A stretch of DNA of 64,000 bases from Octopus vulgaris (Eukaryota): contig OX597817.1 of NCBI GenBank assembly GCA_951406725.2, forward strand, positions 24,056,001 through 24,120,000, given 5' to 3'. The notes beneath the pieces were generated by a model, which saw nothing but the letters and a program-made list of their open reading frames with translations, had not been told where the DNA came from and made no database searches. Shown here piece by piece: positions 6,505 to 58,990 of the stretch. A program made the position numbers and the translations under genes. Every line of letters starts with the position of its first letter. The stretch's first letter is position 1.

Positions 6505-6545
<41 letters not shown>

Positions 6546-6581
6546 GCATTATGACCCGGCAACGCCGGGTCATAGTGCTAG
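6505..6581 (+). mobile_element. Minimal Helitron or isolated Helitron 3' end
   Basis: (TC)n(TA)n, then hairpin gcattatgacccggc-aac-gccgggtcatagtgc ending in CTAG followed by T. Confidence 0.6.
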
Positions 6582-6719
6582 TGCATGTATATATGTGTAT
6601 ATATATGTGTACATATTATATATACATCTATATATATATATACATCTTCACATAAAATACAAAATACAAAGTTATATCTTAATGTCGCTAGTGATAACAA
6701 TACTCAAAATATATAACAG

Positions 6720-9184: not shown

Positions 9185-10383
9185 TGCGATGGGGTACTCT
9201 GTGAGACAAGCCCGTTGTAGTTCGGGGTTTCGCCGTTCGAAGTGACTTGATAAAACCCCCAGGAATCAGTACGCTGACCGGTGTTTGTGGATTTTTGCGA
9301 TGGCTGAAATTCTGTTTTCTGCTGGGGAAAACGGCGACCGAAACAGTCGTAATGCTTCAAACAGCTTACAAAGACGCTTCCATGATCAAAACGCAAGTTT
9401 CCGAATGGTTTTTCGCGTTTTAGGAATGGTCACTTGTCGCTTGAAGATCTACTTCGTTCAGGGTGACTGTCGAACTCCCGAACAAATGAAAACATTATGA
9501 AAACTCATATGGAGTCATAACTGAACATTTGACGAACTTGTGGATATGACTGGTGTGTCCTAGAACTCCTACCAACGAATTTTGAGCGAGGAATTGTAAA
9601 TGAAAAGAGTTGTGCCTCAATTGCTCACGGAAAATCAAAAGCAGTCATGATTGAATGCGTGTCATTAATGGATGACGAAAGCTGGGGCTACGGAATTTGC
9701 AGATATGGAAGTGGTAAAAGAAAAAACGACAGAGGCGTTAAAAAACATCTCTTTTCAAGAATTCCAGCACTGCTTCGAACAGTGGAAAACGCGTCTGGAT
9801 TGATGCATTGCTTCCAATGCAGAATACTTAGAAGGCGATGAATGTGTAAATATGTAAAAGGCGGAGGTAAAGGATATGGACCGCACCCACTTTCGGGGTT
9901 TTTTTTTGTTTTTCTACAGAAACCCACCTTCTCGACTGCGGAGATTCCGAATCTGCAAAAATAATCGGCATTTAAAAATTTTAATCCCTGCCAATTTTTC
10001 ACTTTTTTAGAAACCTTTTTGGCGAAATACGCAGAAAAATACGGAGATTATAATTCTGGAAAAAAAAGTTTTTTGAAAAATTGAATTTTTTTTTTTTTTT
10101 TCAGAATCATAATCTTCGTATTTTTCTACTTATTCCGCCAAATAATTTTCTAAAGGAAGTGAAAAATTCAGGGGTGAGGTGGATGGAGGATTATTAAAAG
10201 TTTGAAATGCAGATTTTATTTTTTTGCAGATTCGGTATCTCCGCAGTTGAAAAAGTGGGTTTCTGTAAAAAAAAAAAAAAACTGAAAGCGGGTGCGGTCC
10301 ATGACCTTTACCTCCACCCATGTAAAACTAAGTGAATAAAATTATATTGCAAAATTCCGGTTTCTTTTGGGTACCCCATCGTA
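9185..10383 (+). mobile_element. Internally deleted mariner transposon, interrupted by a MITE
   Basis: TIRs cgatggggtac / gtaccccatcgta. Decayed peptide FCFLLGKTATETVVMLQTAYKD..QVSEW..RFRNG..LED..RSG and C-terminal EYLEGD. Confidence 0.85.
9860..10319. mobile_element. Long-TIR MITE, Merlin-like (GG termini, 8-bp TSD)
   Basis: TIRs of ~125 bp, ggcggaggtaaagg... / ...cctttacctccaccc. TSD atgtaaaa at 9852-9859 and 10320-10327. Confidence 0.8.
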
Positions 10384-11330: not shown

Positions 11331-12178
11331 AATATACACACACACACAAACACACACACATATGTATGTGTGTATGTGTTTAGGTATGTATGTACGTGCG
11401 CATGTATGTGTGTGTAATAAAATGGTTGAAACTGGAATACCTTTTGTCATAGATTTGCTGAATAATTATTGACTTGGGGATAAACAGGCTGATATTCTAC
11501 AATTTAATTGCCTAAGAATAATTTGTTGATAACATAGAGACTAAATGTGTTAAATTCTCATGCGATAGTTTTTATTCAAAACACAAATTCTAAACGAAAT
11601 AAATTGAAACAATATTCAGTATTTAAATTAAATATGTCGTTTTTAATTAAAATATATAAAAAGTAAATTCACAAAGAAATATAAAAATAACAAAAATTTA
11701 TAATTAGTAAAAATAAACATAAATTCCATATAGAAATAAAGGACCACATGAAAGGCGACATTCTATACTTAAAAGAATATCATGAAAATTGATGTCCAAC
11801 AATGGAATCAATAAACACAAAATGAAACTGGAACATATTAAAATAGAGCATTTATTGAGAGATGACAAAATGCATATTAAATTAGAGATGAAAAGAGCAT
11901 GTATAATATGAACAGTTACTAAATAAATGTCAAAAGATTTTCCACTTATAAATAACCCAATTTTTTTCAGGCATTGTGTAGCAATCATTAGACTACACTA
12001 CATTTTTAAATGTATCCTTTCTTTAATTCAAAGAGCCAGGTATATTTTATGGAATATTTGGCTATTTTTCCCAGCAGGTCGAGTCACCACTTAGAGGCTC
12101 CCTAGTTAGTTGATAGTGAGTTAATAGTAGAGATTTATATTCAGAACATCTAAAGTAAAAAGCATACTGCATAAACTA

Positions 12179-12352
12179 TTGTGTCTGGGGAGAGTCATTT
12201 TCCTTTTGTGCCTTATAATGTAACACACTCACCGGTGAAATTTCCACTTATTTCTTATATTTATTTTTATAAATAAGAAATAAGTGGCAATTTCACCGGT
12301 GAGTGTGTTACATTATAAGGCACAAAAAGAAAATTACTCTCCCCAGACACAA
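12179..12352. repeat. Near-perfect foldback palindrome (~80-bp arms, ~14-nt AT loop)
   Basis: ttgtgtctggggagagt...ccacttatttcttat / ataagaaataagtgg...actctccccagacacaa. Confidence 0.9.
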
Positions 12353-13223
12353 CAGAATATGCTTCAACATACAAACTCATATAAAGAATCTTGCAAACCA
12401 AATTCAAAAACGAAATACTGCATAAAGGTAACTGTAAAAAACTCCTTCTCTTATTGGCCCACCTCTCGCTCTCTCTATCTCTCTCTGTCTCCCTCCCTTT
12501 GTATTCACCTTCATCAACTGAAAAGTATATTTAGGGAGGTAATTTGTAATGTGGCCATGAGCAGTATATATAATATTTATCATTTCTCAAGAAAGGCAGA
12601 ACAAAAGGCAGAACCTAAGCAAATAATCCTTACATATATATCATCTTATTATTATTAAGGGTCTCTTAGCTGCTAGCAACATCACAGAAGAGACATAGAC
12701 TTTGTGAGCTTCTGTGAGAACAGCCCATCTTGGAGAGCAGCTGTTCAGAGAAAACTTGATTCAGAGTAGATAGTATACTCCAGTTCTATCAGACAAAAAT
12801 TCAAGTATGGATAACATCATAAATGACACTCAGTACATGCTGTAAAGTAGTTTGTGAGATATAAAGCATGTCACAGTTTCAAGAAGATAACATACTGCAA
12901 ATAGTACCTGACATGTGAGAGTGGAATACATTTCCAGCTAGATGGAAGGTGATATGAGTGTAAAAAAAGGGTACAGTAAATAATGCTATAAAATCTAAGT
13001 GATTGTAGAGTAAAGGATTGAGACCAAGAAAAGAACGATATCAGGAAAACCTAAAGAGACAGCAAGTGAGAAGTTCAAATTGGTATTATGTCAGGGTGTG
13101 ATATATTTGGTTTTGCACAAAGTAGTGTTCTAGAGAATGTTTAAGAAAACATAAAATTATGAGTTTGTTTTACAGTTTGAGATTACATAGACAGTATTTT
13201 AAATAGGATATGGGCAGTTCCCA

Positions 13224-19215: not shown

Positions 19216-19225
19216 GATCATCCAT

Positions 19226-19635
19226 AGGCGTAGGAGTGGCTGTGTGGTAAGTAACTTGCTAACCAACCACATGGTTCCGGGTTCAGTCCCACTGCGTCGC
19301 ATCTTGGGAAAGTGTCTTCTGCTATAGCCCCGGGCCGACCAATGCCTTGTGAGTGGATTTGGTAGACGGAAACTGAAAGAAGCCTGTCGTATATATGTAT
19401 ATATATAAGTGTGTGTGTATATGTTTGTGTGTCTGTGTTTGTCCCCCTAGCATTGCTTGACAACCGATTCTGGTGTGTTTACGTCCCCGTCACTTAGCGG
19501 TTCGGCAAAAGAGACTAATAGAATAAGTACTGGGCTTACAAAGAATAAGTCCCGGGGTCGATTTGCTCGACTAAAGGCGGTGCTCCAGCATGGCCGCAGT
19601 CAAATGACTGAAACAAGTAAAAGAGTAAAAGAGTA
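19226..19635 (+). mobile_element. tRNA-derived SINE family A, full length
   Basis: Head aggcgtaggagtggctgtgtggtaag..ggttcagtccc, CORE-like ttgggaaagtg, internal (AT/GT)n and an (agtaaaag)n tail. Confidence 0.92.
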
Positions 19636-32170: not shown

Positions 32171-32977
32171 TAAATCTGAACTTGTAATGTATGTCTATAT
32201 ATGTATGAATGCATATACAGATATAAACTTTGATGCATTTTCAACGTTTCCTCATAATTACACACACACACACATACGTGTGTGTGTGTGTATATATGTA
32301 CAAATAGATATATGTTTTTATATACATACGCAATATATGATTTTCCATGTCATCATCATCATCACCATCATTGTCATTATCATTATCCTGTTATGTTAGC
32401 CTTCTATGTTTATATTGGCTGCATAAGATATCATTGGTGCAGTTAGTAGGTACTCAAATGTTTAATGTGTACCTAGATATGTTGGGTGACTACTTCCTAA
32501 TAACACTTCATTTTTAGCTTCCTAATTTTTCGATGGACGATTTTGATAACACCAAAACCCAGTGTACTGGGTTCTTTATTCGTAGCACCAACACTAAAGG
32601 GTTGATATGTCCTTGGCAAGGCAAAAAGCATTCTCACAATCTCACACGTTGTTGGACATACTGAGTGTGATTTTCCTGACACCATCACTAGTAAAATAGC
32701 CATGTTGAAGACTAGACAAAAGAGGCCACAGAAACCCTCATCTCGCTTCATCACCAAACTCTTAACAAAAGAGTATGAGTGATAGGGTGATTAATGTTAG
32801 TGGTGGCGATGATGTGATGGGGAAAGAATACTAGAAATACTCAGTATTCTGAGTTAGGTGAATCAGAAAGTTTAGCCTTTGTTATACAAAAAGTCATATT
32901 GGTCATGTTTAGAAACCCTTTGATCAGAGAGTCCTGTGGTTTAACAATGAAACCAACAACTACAGCAACAGTAGCAG

Positions 32978-33186
32978 CCGTCCAAGAATTTGGACCTGGA
33001 AACCTCCATTTCCAGCGACTTCGAGGGCCACCTCCCAGTGGTGTCGGGCGTCAACAAAGAGCCGTCGACTACAACAAGACAACCAAAGTTTTTTTCCCAG
33101 AGTCTGGGTGTCTCCAGCCCCTAAGCCCTAGACCATCACCTAATCATCCTTACCCGTCTTGTTGCTTAACAACAACAAAAACAACA
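32978..33186 (+). mobile_element. Headless ~210-bp structured retroposon with (CAA)n tail, copy 1
   Basis: 16-bp TSD acagcaacagtagcag at 32962-32977 and 33187-33202. Near-identical copy at 58513. Confidence 0.8.
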
Positions 33187-34431
33187 ACAGCAACAGTAGC
33201 AGATGGAGTGAAAAAAGGACAGTATTTTAGGATTGCTGATTCATATGAACGTTCCATGATTTGCATTTAGTTTTCTTGTAGTAGTTAAGCTGTTTCACAA
33301 AATGAAATAATTACTCTTTACTTTTCTGAAAATCTGCTGTGTTTTAGAGGGAAACATCCAGCCTAACATGGATAGAAACCTTACAATATGTGATAATACA
33401 AAACGTTGAGGAAAAAAATTGATAATAAACTTTGAAGAAAAAGACATCAGCAAAGAAAATCTAACAACTGAACTGAAAGAACAACACTGAAGTGAATGCA
33501 GATAAAGAAGGAGAAAAAACAGTAAAAAACACTTTAAAATAGAAGCAAATCTGTTTTGCAAATCATAAATATAAAATATGTCAGTCATAAATTATTACTA
33601 AAACAAACCCTGATTTCTGCAAAAAGGTTTTATATGGTTCAAGAATTTCACATACATTACGCACTTAGTTGTTGAAATTACATATATATGAATGTATATA
33701 TGAGATATATATGTGCATGTCTGTATATATATACATATATATATATAATGCACATATTTATGTATGTGTTTGCATGGTTCTCTCTCACTTTCTCTAACAC
33801 TATTTGTTTCTTTCCAACCGTCCCTGTTTTTCTCTATCCTTCCTATTTTTTCCTTCTCCGCATGCTGTTTTCATGTTTTTCTTTCAATTAAACAGAAAGC
33901 AACACTGCTTATGTTCCTTTAATCTGTGATTTTTCTCTTTCATTACACTGTGTGATGGATGTCTTTTTGCTGTTACTCTTTGTTCTCTGTTTGTCTTGCT
34001 ATTTTTACCCACATCGAAAGGCCCCAGTCTAATTTACTTTTTAGCTATAATTCTCGAAAGATCATTGTTTCTACCTTGTTTTTTTTTTTTTCTGATGAAA
34101 TCCTTCGGCTACCATCTTGCATTTTTAACTTTCAAATACACTCACATTTGTTCCTGTTATTGTTCCAGTTTTCTAATTTTTGTTCCTCGCAGCTTCAAGA
34201 CTACTTCCTAATAACATCACTAGATGGAGTCGACGTATCAAAATGTGTCAAAACTGCAATGATATCTAGCTAATAAAATGATTTTACAAATTCATATTCA
34301 TTTGCTTTTTTTTGCATTTTTTGGTTTTTACCGTATAACTTTACTCACATGCTCACCCACACACATATATACATATATATGCGTGTGTGTACATACAAAC
34401 ATACGTACATACATACATTTACACATATGTA

Positions 34432-35060: not shown

Positions 35061-35270
35061 CACATATATAGATGAGTGTATTTTTCCCTTGTTAACAATT
35101 AACGCGGAAAAAATAGATAAATAGTTACCAGGGTAGCAAAAAAATCACACAAGTAAAGAGGTTGTAACTCCTTGTTTTTAAAGGTAGAAACTTCGGGTTT
35201 ACGTGGAATTTTTTGTGTAATATATAAATAAATAAATGGAGTTTAACGCAGGTATAATTCAAATACTTTT

Positions 35271-35353
35271 ACTTCCGACACACGTTTCGAAGATTTCACT
35301 GATATTATTCAAAAGAATAAAAGGTGTAAAGCAATTCTTCTCTTCGGGGAAGT
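35271..35353 (-). ncRNA. Type I hammerhead ribozyme fold with core variant CCGAAGA
   Basis: acttcc-ccgaaga-gaag..cttc-gaaa-cgtgtg-tc-ggaagt, with stem I acttcc/ggaagt and a GUC site. Confidence 0.7.
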
Positions 35354-35619
35354 GAAGAAATGAAACTCGTCAATAAGATATTTTAACAGAAAATGATGGA
35401 TATGTATAGTGATTTATTGAACGCTATTAGTATTGCTTGAAAAAACGTTATATGATATAACGTCAGAAGTAGCCTATAGAAAGAGGAGGGATATTTTTTA
35501 GTGAATGTTAAATATAAAAAGAAAATTAATGTTTAAATTATCTATAATGATAGAGTTTACTTATATGAACTAAAGGTATGTTTTTGCCAATGTTTACATC
35601 GGTATGCACGCTCTATAAT

Positions 35620-35700
35620 CTGAAGAGAAGATTACATTGCTTTATACCTTTTATTCTTTTGAATAATATCAGGGAAATCTTCGAAACATGTGTCGGAAGT
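35620..35700 (+). ncRNA. Hammerhead core with intact CUGAAGA but lacking the stem I 5' strand
   Basis: ctgaaga-gaagatt...aatcttc-gaaa-catgtg-tc-ggaagt. Confidence 0.65.
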
Positions 35701-35770
35701 AAAAGTATTTGAATTATACTTGCGTTAAACTCCATTTATTTATTTATATATACATATATATATTTCTATA

Positions 35771-42728: not shown

Positions 42729-44210
42729 GATTGCATGGAATTTTATTTAGAAGGGCATCTAAGTTCAGGCATTTCATGAGAAGTCAGAATCGCACTCTCA
42801 TCTAAAGGTCAACTGCAATCATATTATTAACTACAGTTCATCATTTATAAACTTAACAATTTCATAAATATATGTCTAACGAGATTAGATTGCATGCTTG
42901 TTACAATGAATACTGAGCTTTATTTGATAACCAGTTGATCTAGCATGCAGGGCCGCATCTCAGTGAGGAGGCGGGCAGTGCGCATTGATGCTGTCGAGAG
43001 GTAGGCCCAAACCAGCGTGCATTCTCTCTTGATGTCCCCATACACTTGCTGGTTTCCGGTATGTGGAGTTCTTGACTGGTAGCACTTGCATGTGCAAGTT
43101 GTTTACAAGACATCGTGTTCAAAACAATACAAGATTTCAAATTAAAATAATCAAAATTTTGTTAATTTATAATTCATTGAAAATTTCAGAAAGAAAATAT
43201 TTTGCTTTAGTTGTGGGCCACATTAAACTTAATATAGTTGTCATTGACATAATTACAGATTTAATATTTATTTACTATGCTGGCATTGATTAGACATGTC
43301 TGCCAAGATGTCATCAGATGAGACCATTCACATCATGTCAGTCATGAGATTCTAAATCCTAGGATATAACCTCACCACTTTTCGTTTGTATCTTTCACTG
43401 CTGCAGGCTTTGTTATTGTTTTCGTTCCTTCTCGAGCCATGCCTGGCTCATAAGGGCCGGTTTCCTGGTTTCTTTGGTGCACAGGTTCCCCATCTGGATG
43501 GGACGCTGGGCCGTCGCAGCTGAGTTGCAAGTTGCAGGAAGAAAGAGTGAGAGAAAGTTGGGGGGAAAGAGTCAGCAGAAGTTCACCATTAACTTCTGCC
43601 GAAGCCACATGGAGCTTAGGTGTTTCACTCATAAACACACACATCACCCGGTCTGAGATTCGAACCTGCAATCCCTAGACTGCGAGTCCGCTGCTCTAAC
43701 CATTAGGCCATGTGCCTCCACGCAGACTTTGTCTTTCCAGTGAACTTGATACAAATAGCAGTTTAATACATAAACAAATAAAGATATACAAAATGATATG
43801 ACTAGAAACTTTAAGAACTTCACCATGTGTTTAAAAAAAAACTATTAAATGTTTGTACTATGTACACCTTCTTTACTCTTTCATATGAATCACAAACTTT
43901 CAAATCAGCTTCAAATTAACTTAATCTAGAAGAGATTGTCTTCCCTGTAAATAGTTAACTACCTGTGGCCACCACATAAGATTTTTGTTTTTTTCCAAAT
44001 ACCTTCAAAAAGAAGAAATTGTTTAAATTTCATTGTAACAAACATGCAATCTAATCTCGTTAGACATATATTTATGAAATTCTTAAGTTTATAAATGATG
44101 AACTTAAGTTAATAATATGATTGCAGATGACCTTTAGATGAGAGTACAACTCTGACTTCTCATGAAATGCCTGAACTTAGATGCCCTTCTAAATAAAATT
44201 CCATGCAATC
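42729..44210. repeat. Inverted repeat, ~180-bp arms (42729-42910 and 44029-44210)
   Basis: gattgcatggaattttatttagaagggc...gttacaatgaa / ttcattgtaac...gcccttctaaataaaattccatgcaatc. Confidence 0.9.
43410..43722 (-). mobile_element. tRNA-derived SINE, head X plus Meta-domain-like body
   Basis: Head shared with 39115. Body gcgacggcccagcgtcccatccag..gaaaccaggaaaccggcc..atgagcca..ggctcg resembles the MetaSINE core. Confidence 0.75.
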
Positions 44211-46542: not shown

Positions 46543-46947
46543 TTACATATGTATGTGTGTGAGTGTACATATACATCTATACATACTTGTGAATATGCTG
46601 TCCTCAGGGTTAACATTTGCACAAGCTCCTGTGGAGGCCTGACGAGCATTTACCCTAAAGGAGGGCTGTAAAATTGAATAACCTTCAAAAGGACATCATG
46701 AGATAGAGTCAATGATTCTTTATTAAATTCAACATGCAAAATTTGTCGTGTCAAAACTCCACCTAAATTTCTGGAACCTTAATACCAAAGATTTTTAATG
46801 ATTTGTCCTGTTTCAAACTTCACCCAATCTTATCAATTCAAAACTTTATTGGATCTTTTGTCACATTTTTGCTGGAATCCAAAGATTTTTACCATTCTAA
46901 ATTTCTCTTCTTTTTCAATATGTCATTTTATGTCACTCTCAGACATT

Positions 46948-47382
46948 GTTGGCATCCTTTTTGTCTCGGGAGACAATGGAGTTGCGCATAAAATAGTCTA
47001 GTCCGGCTTTTACATTTCATGTCCTGATACATTTCCTGCTGTGGCTGTGTAGTCCTATCCTGGACAAACACTCTCTCTGGCAGGTACTGCAAATGTAGCG
47101 AAGACTGTTCCTGGCTGGTTGTAATGCCATAGTTTCTTGTTGACGTCTTCTCTTGTCTTTCCATTTCTCCTCTCTCTCTCTGTTACTCCTTTGAATTCCC
47201 TCTTTTACGGTATGTCGCCAATCTCCACGGTTGCCGGCAACTGCTTCCCAACAGCTAATATTGATGTTGCAGGCCTTCATGTCCCTTTTGCAAACATCCT
47301 TGTAACGTAAGAACGGTCTACCCACAGACCTAGTACCCCTAGCAAGCTCTCCGTAGAGTATGTCCTTGGGGATTCTGCCATC
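46948..47382 (-). mobile_element. 5'-truncated RTE (BovB-like) LINE
   Basis: GRIPKDILYGELARGTRSVGRPFLRYKDVCKRD...CSTCQRECLSRIGLHSH, with tail ccattgtctcccgagacaaaaaggatgccaac. A 45-bp TSD lies at 46903-46947 and 47383-47427. Confidence 0.92.
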
Positions 47383-48326
47383 TTCTCTTCTTTTTCAATA
47401 TGTCATTTTATGTCACCCTCAGACATTATTTTACTACATTTGTACCTTGATATTGATATGTACAACTTTTCTCTTCTAATTTCAATGAAAGTATAATTTT
47501 TACCTCTTGTGAATTCGTATTGGGTAAAAAATTATATGAAAGAAAAAAAAATTTGTATCATGAATATAAAAGAACCTTGTCTTCTTGGAGAATGGACTCT
47601 GTCTGAGGAAACTGACTATCTCTTCATATTTCAAGGATTTTTTCAGGAGGGGCAAGGATTTGATCAATAATAATTGGCAAAATTGCTCTCCAATATTTGT
47701 TCTGACTCTTTCCATTTTAAGATTCAAACCTACCAAAAGTCATCTTAACTTTTCCTTTCTACATTTAATGGTATCAATACCAGTTAAGTACTAGGGTTGA
47801 TATAATTGACTGTTCTATCATCTCAAATGTCTTATGTTAATTCCTATTTTAGGAATTAATATTATGTATTCGGAAAAGTGTTAATTGTCAATAGAGACCA
47901 AAAAACAACTTCAGAGGAATAATATCACTTGATTAAAATCATAAAAAGATAGATTATTTTAGATATTACATAAACATTCGTCCATTTTAGCTGTTTGAAT
48001 TTTAATATTTCAGCTAACAAGCAAATGGTGATCATATATTTTAAAACTTGTTGTAATTCAAGCAATTTTTTTGCTACATTTTTTTAAAAAGGACTCCACT
48101 TTTCAGATATATTATAAATAAAATAACTCACTTTATCTGCCAAATGATAGTGTATTAATTATTCTATTTATGTATTGTAAAAATAATGAAACAAAGTATT
48201 TAACAAATTTGATCTATGGTATCACATGAGACAAACTCACAGGACAGGAAGAAGACATTCTGGGAAAAGATTGAGGAAGTTGTTCACACATTGCTACTAA
48301 CTCCCAATCCATAAAACGAAATTATA

Positions 48327-58389: not shown

Positions 58390-58990
58390 GAGTACTGCTG
58401 GCTCCAAGAAGCAAAGGCCATTTTAGCAATAGCAGAAAAGACAGAGAAAAGACATCACATCTTTGAGCCAGAAGCTGAAGTGCATCTATGAGCACAGCAG
58501 CTGCAGCAGCAGCCGTCCAAGAATTTGGACCTGGAGATCTCCATTTCCAGCAACTTCGAGGGCCACCTCCCAGTGGTGTCGGACATCAACGAAAAGCCCT
58601 CGACTACAACAAGAAGACCAAAGTTGTTTTTTTTTCCCAAGGTCTGGGGTCTCCCACCCCTAAGCCCTAGACCATCACCTAATCACTCTTACCCGTCTTG
58701 TTACTTAACAACAACAGCAACAACAAACAGCAGCAGCAGCAGTACCAACAGCAGTAGTAGTAACAACAATAGCAGCAGCAGCATCCCGAATGTGAAAGCA
58801 ATACTCTATTGCTGGTTTCACCAGAGCATTATTGAGTATCAAGAATTGTTGGTGGCTGAAGTATGTTCTAATCCTACAGAGAAGGCCCACTCATTGTGAT
58901 TGGCGTATTAATGATGGTCTTTCTCCAGAAGAGATCGTTGGTGGTAATGAGATCCAACATTTGAAGAGATTGTTTGGGCTAAATATTTTC
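58390..58990 (-). pseudogene. Decayed CR1/Jockey-group LINE fragment split by the structured retroposon
   Basis: GLLCRIRTYFSHQQFLILNNALVKPAIEYCFHIRDAA, resuming as LQLLAQRCDVFSLSF..NGLC at 58400-58480. Confidence 0.7.
58513..58730 (+). mobile_element. Headless structured retroposon, copy 2
   Basis: Same 5' start (ccgtccaagaatttggacc) and (CAA/CAG)n tail as 32978; flanked by (CAG)n. Confidence 0.8.

Follow-up and report, generated by a model that had tools for sequence, protein, structure and literature searches.

A short retroposon of Octopus vulgaris with a predicted HDV-like ribozyme head and a 3' end in common with an Ingi-like LINE

Two copies in the window and their family

The window, i.e., the whole 64,000-nt stretch of Octopus vulgaris DNA that was analysed, contains on its forward strand two copies of a short repeat that are 87% identical to each other over 246 nt (E 9e-83), confirming the original prediction that both are real copies of one element. 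The body of copy 1, without its tail, occupies 32977–33170 (nhmmer, model positions 1–195); it is followed by an (AAC)n tail at 33171–33186 and bracketed by a 15-bp target-site duplication, acagcaacagtagca, which lies at 32962–32976 on the 5' side and recurs as a second acagcaacagtagca at 33187–33201 on the 3' side. This duplication had been put at 16 bp, a length reached only by counting the following G, and the common start of the two copies at C 32978; the duplication is real and the exact start is indeed shared, but the first base is G 32977 (58512 in the second copy). Copy 2 extends over 58512–58709, and its own changes, which break two pairs of helix P1 and remove P1.1 of the ribozyme predicted below, have probably left it dead. 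Both copies carry private breaks in the predicted ribozyme core; folding gives copy 2 a z-score of −3.5 but copy 1 one of only −1.3. The CR1-like relic said to surround copy 2 is plausible by eye, with one minus-strand reading frame running through the insertion site, but the best tblastn match reaches only E 0.34 and leaves the relic unconfirmed. The stems named at the outset are all present in the sequence, and the absence of a tRNA head is likewise upheld: there is no tRNA gene and no Rfam match in the window, no A box was found in the element, and the lack of a tRNA-like head and of A and B boxes, together with an internal T run at 33089–33095, sets it apart from tRNA-derived SINEs.

Members of the family measure 195 nt, carry an (AAC)n tail and encode no protein; there are about 2,700 of them, a figure that follows from 1,290 genomic occurrences of an exact core 20-mer (0 for the control) and from the retention of this 20-mer in 16 of 33 copies picked independently of it. 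Base +1 is G in 94 of 98 distinct full copies (these come from 114 distinct matches; the remaining 16 are fragments of copies that carry an interruption or have lost a part). A target duplication was found in 47 of 59 copies, and since a G follows the 3' duplicate in only 18 of those 47, G1 is to be seen as part of the element; duplications of at least 10 nt occur in 43/59 copies as against 12/59 when the flanks are swapped as a control. Random 5' truncation, of the kind that would have made the repeat a plain LINE 3' UTR, is absent. With the 3' 73 nt as the query, all 30 copies examined among the 40 listed extend to bases 1–6, and 24 of them to base 1; 80 evenly spaced 10-kb stretches (800 kb) yielded four copies at two sites, all four of full length; and 29 of 30 consecutive core matches on one contig reach bases 1–4. 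This consistent retention of the head indicates that the element is not a truncated LINE 3' UTR. Mean divergence from the majority sequence is 4.1%, a value biased low, as many of the copies are best matches; the changes are mostly at CpG, with no linked variants except two CpG pairs and the T run. The family sequence is also present in sequencing runs of five organisms. Tandem arrays of two or three full copies occur (L161:6348-6985, L209 and L044), each copy sitting inside the repeat beside the previous one, and six copies (on contigs C2, C4, C20, C26, C28 and C29) are broken at or near CCCTAGAC by one and the same sequence starting CAGTGGTTTTCAAC, which we take to resemble a hAT-type terminal repeat.

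Other repeats lie around these copies. A 5'-truncated RTE-BovB piece with a CAA-like end (46945–47390, minus strand) is flanked by a 48-bp direct repeat (46903–46950 and 47383–47430), long for a target duplication. An interspersed repeat of ~410 bp, its copies 67–92% alike and far commoner than the element, is seen at 19224–19635 and in about ten other places, including 25547, 28754, 38290, 48329, 50660, 53563, 57346 and 62133. Long palindromes or inverted-repeat pairs at 6519–6606, 9860–10318, 12169–12362, 35220–35751 and 42729–44210 are probably the ends of DNA transposons. Beyond the window, the genome carries Dong/R4, RTE-BovB and CR1 LINEs: at least five Dong/R4 families are nested in (TAA)n (L129, L163, L138, L140, L146, L149 and others), with the L129 copy opening with about eleven tandem repeats of 22–23 nt and L163 with two. 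There is also a decayed R2-like element (L093:4400–6800) with an RLE-type C terminus, around which no rDNA was noticed.

The head as a predicted ribozyme

For the first 92 nt of the element, the predicted fold is that of an HDV-like ribozyme whose P1 is interrupted by two hairpins. The original prediction had noted an HDV-like layout in which a full P1 and P1.1 could not be placed; the layout is supported and both can be placed, albeit with P1 in two parts. The 5' strand of P1 begins with G1-C2-C3 (32977–32979), which pairs with 33047–33049 and has the predicted cut just 5' of G1. It is interrupted by a 36-nt insert (32980–33015) of two abutting hairpins, without unpaired junction bases (a predicted four-way junction), and resumes as CGAC (C40-G41-A42-C43; 33016–33019), which pairs with 33043–33046. 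The 5' strand of P2 (33021–33029) pairs round a bulged A with its 3' strand (33059–33068), where copy 1 has a mismatch of its own at 33064. P3 (ACC/GGU) and its loop L3 (UCCCAGU) take up 33030–33042, the 3' strand of P1 (GUCGGGC) and a following GU take up 33043–33051, this GU providing a one-pair P1.1 with C33035, and a CAA loop in place of P4 is succeeded by J4/2 (together 33052–33058), with the predicted catalytic C at 33055 and the reading CGAA in most copies and CAAA in copy 1. Thus, the elements follow each other in the HDV strand order (P1, J1/2, P2, P3, L3, P3', P1', P1.1, J4/2, P2') with all helices pairing.

The split P1 is the peculiarity of this fold. GCC and CGAC form seven of seven Watson-Crick pairs with GUCGGGC, as 3+4 round the 36-nt insert, as against at best 4/7 for a contiguous P1, which falls short of a contiguous helix of 6–7 bp; with P1 non-contiguous, the head is filed as an HDV-like variant and not as a canonical member. 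A canonical contiguous P1 and a ribozyme on the reverse strand were both sought and not found. The insert closes into two hairpins in all four copies folded, at −11 to −14 kcal/mol. When the first 44 nt are shuffled, a split P1 arises in 157 of 20,000 cases with Watson-Crick pairs only and in 3,321 of 20,000 with G-U allowed; the full descriptor, which was composed after the sequence was seen, matches 0 of 2,000 shuffled heads and nothing on the reverse strand.

Measured against known ribozymes, the head shows both agreements and deviations. G1, at the RNA 5' end, pairs with a pyrimidine (C73), and J4/2 (C79-G-A-A) fits C-R-R-A. P1.1 is the single pair C59-G74, retained in 87 of 98 copies, and one such pair suffices for the active ribozyme L1TcRz (PMC3185411). 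In L3, U57 and G62 are present, but A61 stands where the descriptor fixes a C (PMC6326823), and an inactive R2 ribozyme has been described with C-to-A plus G-to-A in L3 (PMC3774820). J1/2 measures 1–3 nt, and a 1-nt spacer left drz-Agam-2 with little activity (PMC4908430). G72A, present in 10 of 98 copies, disrupts the second P1 pair, and P1 mismatches are uncommon and reduce activity, although a 4-nt P1 has been reported for one R2 ribozyme (PMC3774820). Active ribozymes devoid of P4 exist (PMC3774820; also 10.1101/2023.06.13.544163). The whole core is intact in just 29 of 98 copies. Within the family there is no covariation, the variation being CpG decay, and the ribozyme half is no better conserved than the 3' half (3.1% vs 2.7% non-CpG changes); no difference would be anticipated among dead copies descended from a single source, and the family by itself is therefore no test of the fold.

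Outside the family, a sister LINE offers a comparison. Its full-length but broken copy (L326:3307 to ~7975) is bracketed by a 12-bp duplication, carries an (AAC)n tail and starts at the homologous G, and its P1 consists of GCC, one bulged U and CAAC against GUUGGGC, i.e., it opens with the same GCC and is split at the same place, a single U corresponding to the 36-nt insert of the element. P3, L3 (including the deviant A61), the GU and J4/2 are the same in both families, as is the bulged A of P2, and the sister LINE has a short P4. One P1 pair (G-C to A-U) and three P2 pairs are changed on both sides and are still Watson-Crick. Relative to the sister copy L328, four of 18 ribozyme pairs are changed and all four remain Watson-Crick (P 4e-6 to 2e-5); relative to L326, 4/4 double changes are compensatory (P 6e-5 to 3e-4), alongside two further one-sided breaks. 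These values come from a simple count over one sister family with three heads, aligned and structured by hand, of which only two retain the first GCC, L329 being without it. Hence, the covarying stems that had been called for appear in the comparison with the sister family but not inside the family itself.

The domains of this LINE point to its kind. L326, searched in pieces against Pfam, gives PHD, Exo_endo_phos (just under the cut-off), RVT_1 and RNase_H (under the cut-off), in the order 2A-like motif GDIETNPGP, PHD fingers, APE, RT, RNase H, and intact relatives show the same domain order. None of the 56 relatives returned bears a clade name, and the label is therefore kept at "Ingi-like". 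The domains and the 2A-like motif match descriptions of Ingi (PMC12278014, PMC3708506), and suggest that the sister LINE and the partner LINE introduced below are Ingi-like; a 2A-like GD(V/I)ExNPGP motif near the N terminus belongs to Ingi but also to other clades (PMC3708506), and RNase H separates Ingi from Vingi (PMC13708176).

The alternative that survives best, though an unlikely one, sees the head as an internal Pol II promoter starting at G1, like Pr77 in L1Tc, with an inherited HDV-like fold that the P1 insert has disabled, so that cleavage is lost. The deviations in P1, L3, P1.1 and J1/2 and the lack of visible selection among copies accord with it, as does the coincidence of cut site and transcription start in L1Tc (PMC3185411). 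However, the insert lies exactly at the position of the sister LINE's bulge and leaves all seven P1 pairs in place, and four pairs changed on both sides are not required of a DNA promoter; moreover, the promoter and ribozyme roles can coexist. If the predicted ribozyme does cut, it would mean that the HDV substrate helix accepts a large inserted domain and that searches for a contiguous P1 overlook a natural class of ribozymes—Rfam gave no match here.

A different HDV-like core was encountered with a relaxed core pattern: the 5' end of an RTE-BovB family has a standard-looking one (ACC UCCUCGU GGU, then GG) with a long J1/2, unrelated in sequence to the element, in L171, L187, L190 and L199 (at ~1400–1560) and in three more matches. 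The four named head relics are decayed and failed the strict ribozyme descriptor. No further family emerged from a search with an L1Tc-like loop pattern.

Target sites and the partner LINE

In 63 of 98 copies the insertion site is an NCA-phase repeat, i.e., one with at least three in-phase NCA units within 15 nt upstream, against a background of 0.7%. AGC makes up 17 of the 19 pure triplet sites; AAT, although no triplet is commoner in the background, is absent from them, and (CA)n accounts for 4/98. At the 35/98 non-repeat sites, a duplication of 8–15 nt (median 12) is present in 29 of the 35, and C is found at −14 in 22/35 and at −2 in 19/35. Targeting is thus a strong preference, loosely held at each of the two nicks and presumably aided by pairing of the tail: the proposed aim at (CAG/CAA) microsatellites stands as a bias and fails as site specificity. 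It has been considered, and given little probability, that this bias is secondary, with an endonuclease of little selectivity and repeats that grow by slippage or persist as harmless. In favour of this, AAC repeats arise from the tail itself, and 12 of 59 copies show duplications of at least 10 nt even when their flanks are swapped; against it, the repeats lie on the 5' side, beyond tail seeding, they are AGC and neither AAC nor AAT, the two C preferences hold even where there is no repeat, and the partner LINE occupies the same kind of sites.

This partner came from a search for RNase H, which gave eight matches. One of them, L258, with RNase_H above the Pfam cut-off and located in a CAG/TAG repeat, ends in the last 29 nt of the element followed by (AAC)n: element 33142–33170 and L258:2373–2401 are identical at 27 of 29 positions (E 5e-7), and other copies of that LINE family end alike. 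The partner family, 45% identical to the sister LINE over the RNase H region, shows random 5' truncation and the same targets as the element. The head of the element is attached in 18 of its 42 distinct copies, inverted in 15 and in sense in 3, where it is fused to the LINE 3' part (an older unrelated piece in L337 is excluded, and two doubtful short inverted pieces and a false L382 match are uncounted). Ten of the 42 have long inverted heads, running from positions 1–27 to 93–149 and joined head to head with the LINE piece; another five have short inverted pieces that start at position 110, against a background of 1.6%. The starting point falls within head positions 108–112 in 12 of these 15 inverted pieces, at the 5' edge of the T run of variable length at 33089–33095. 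The sister copies L328 and L329 also carry an inverted head.

The heads linked to the LINE have variants of their own: A at position 30 in 4 of 10 scored LINE-linked heads and in 0 of 72 short elements, and, in three LINE-linked heads, ATG at a place where AAG is present in 75 of 80 short copies. These variants indicate that LINE-linked heads derive from another template than the short elements, which most simply would be the LINE's own 5' end, suggesting indirectly that the element and the partner LINE have the same head. In the heads of L288, L382 and L245 the ATG precedes the T run, and an open frame lies behind it in the middle of the element (33086–33140); positions 110–166 may represent the start of the LINE coding frame with the start codon lost.

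Pattern searches did not find a full-length direct partner LINE. A pattern for a LINE with the whole 3' half of the element gave nine matches, all of them variants of the short element, and one for the ribozyme with another continuation gave a single match, a short element; with each of these patterns, about one in two such LINEs would escape detection. A pattern for the first ~166 nt, which also misses about half, gave 89 matches (deletions, later insertions and one inverted head) without a shared LINE continuation, and none of the loose ends among the matches listed leads into one. Clustering of the sequence 5' of AAC tails in the collected loci gave no LINE partner either. The CR1-like, three RTE-like, Dong/R4 and R2-like LINEs of the genome were considered as partners and rejected, having neither end in common with the element. 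Accordingly, the search for a LINE sharing an end succeeded for the 3' end (29 nt plus (AAC)n), but for the 5' end only by way of attached heads and without a full-length direct partner. There is a third RNase H LINE family as well, a more distant one (L259–L264, L330–L344 and L349), which likewise has (AAC)n tails and lies in CAG/GAC repeats; no 5' head was recovered from it, and L332 and L342 have ordinary internal inversions.

It is very improbable that the element is instead a SINE in its own right, headed by a ribozyme and with nothing but its 3' end taken from a LINE, the inverted heads being primed in trans from short-element RNA. No LINE was found continuing in sense past ~166 (by a pattern that such a LINE passes only about half the time) and just 29 nt are common at the 3' end, but the LINE-linked heads have their own variants (A30 in 4/10 vs 0/72, ATG vs AAG), the head lies in cis in the sister LINE, copies of which (L328, L329) show the same inversion, and there are three sense fusions of the head to the LINE 3' part.

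The two shared regions may be brought together by a long-range stem of 10 bp. In the minimum-energy fold its 5' arm (33072–33081, positions 96–105) pairs with 33155–33164, the 10 nt preceding the last CTTAAC, so that the 3' arm lies inside the 29 nt in common with the LINE. In the sister family the arms have other letters and are complementary again, with three pairs kept of three or four double changes (P 0.005–0.04), and the 3' arm is alternatively able to form a local hairpin; covariation here appears weaker than that of the ribozyme. If it is real in the long RNA, the stem would keep the head next to the 3' end during integration, and both the inversions at a fixed site and the fusions of head to tail would find an explanation.

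A proposed life cycle and its known parallels

On these grounds, it is probable that the element is a short non-coding retroposon whose head and last 29 nt are common to an RNase H-bearing Ingi-like LINE, of which it is likely an internal-deletion product, and whose first 92 nt are a predicted HDV-like ribozyme with a split P1, which would cut before G1 and likely fix the 5' end. Its cycle may be pictured as beginning inside a host or neighbouring Pol II transcript, since Pol III would be halted at the T run inside the element; from that transcript, predicted self-cleavage would release an RNA with G1 at its 5' end. The LINE protein would then recognise the shared 3' end and nick CAA/CAG-like DNA, on which the (AAC)n tail could pair and reverse transcription begin. 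The second nick would fall 12–14 nt from the first, as suggested by the observed median duplication of 12 at non-repeat sites; a CAG tract has the preferred bases at both nicks, and hence the repeat bias. The 10-bp stem, linking the region after the ribozyme with that before the tail, may keep head and tail together. In a long LINE RNA it would often let the second DNA end prime on the head, giving inverted heads, and jumps of the reverse transcriptase from the 3' region to the head would give sense fusions and thereby the birth of the short element.

A broader and more tentative proposal, put forward as a possibility rather than as the likelier outcome, is that these animal Ingi-like LINEs possess an active HDV-type ribozyme with a plug-in domain in P1, which may be as little as one base or as much as a two-hairpin four-way junction, and that the 10-bp clasp would put the head at the integration site, where the second DNA end would prime at a fixed landing pad. 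Such programmed twin priming would close off truncated insertions by means of an inverted head and give rise, over and over, to short head-plus-tail elements like the present one. In L1 twin priming, an inverted 5' part and a 5'-truncated 3' part lie in one target duplication, the inversion points are spread, and the two parts are nearly adjacent in the RNA. Here, in contrast, the starts of 12 of the 15 inverted parts cluster within 5 nt of one spot next to the ribozyme, well away from the first-strand stop. The 5'-3' stem and the fixed-site inversions bear on how the 5' ends of non-LTR insertions are joined and on the origin of short bipartite derivatives.

Short derivatives with a ribozyme head have been described for Ingi, R2, RTE and Vingi (PMC5786205, PMC3414825, PMC4035085, PMC6765202). 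Among the bipartite non-autonomous LINEs of RTE, Ingi, Vingi and R2 (Kojima 2018, PMC5786205), which, as is probable for the element, consist of LINE 5' and 3' parts only, the available text ties the retained 5' end to ribozymes; that text does not contain the word "octopus" or any such family, which its supplementary alignments or Repbase could contain. The literature covered, i.e., listings and excerpts of openly available papers, yielded no description of the family, the P1 insertion, an Ingi-like 5'-3' stem or a fixed-site head inversion. As for the claim of an undescribed element, the family and the fold variant thus appear to be new, but the kind, a ribozyme-headed LINE deletion derivative, is known. 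The most reasonable placement, and a rather likely one, is that of a deletion derivative of the NARTc/SIDE type, with a ribozyme fold not found described.

The comparisons that follow rest on the consulted portions of their sources. The Drosophila R2 SIDEs and R2/R1 hybrids similarly combine a ribozyme 5' end (predicted in the element) with a LINE 3' end, are not Pol III products, have a precise 5' junction and have been proposed to originate by template jump or deletion (PMC3414825). They differ in being rare and restricted to 28S rDNA, whereas the element is dispersed in ~2,700 copies and would use an APE/RNase H LINE (PMC3414825). As regards the fold, the absence of P4 is paralleled by the minimal P4-less HDV-like and theta ribozymes (10.1101/2023.06.13.544163) and the peripheral hairpin domain outside the core by drz-Agam-2 (PMC4908430); however, the known extra domains are in J1/2 or P4, and that of the element would lie inside the 5' strand of P1, between pairs 3 and 4. 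A close likeness is with NARTc, RIME and SIDER, derived from L1Tc and ingi: they too are non-coding and have a target-site duplication, and they bear features that are probable or predicted for the element, a 5' end in common with an APE-RT-RNase H LINE (PMC3185411, PMC4035085, PMC12278014) and an HDV-like ribozyme at +1 with a one-pair P1.1. Unlike them, the octopus element belongs to an animal host, ends in (AAC)n rather than poly(A), has a 36-nt insert in the predicted P1 and no P4, and shows a strong CAG bias, a predicted 10-bp stem and a recurrent inverted head on the partner LINE. The range of ribozyme-headed Ingi-like elements and their short parasites would be extended from trypanosomes to an animal, in which they have a preference for CAG repeats.
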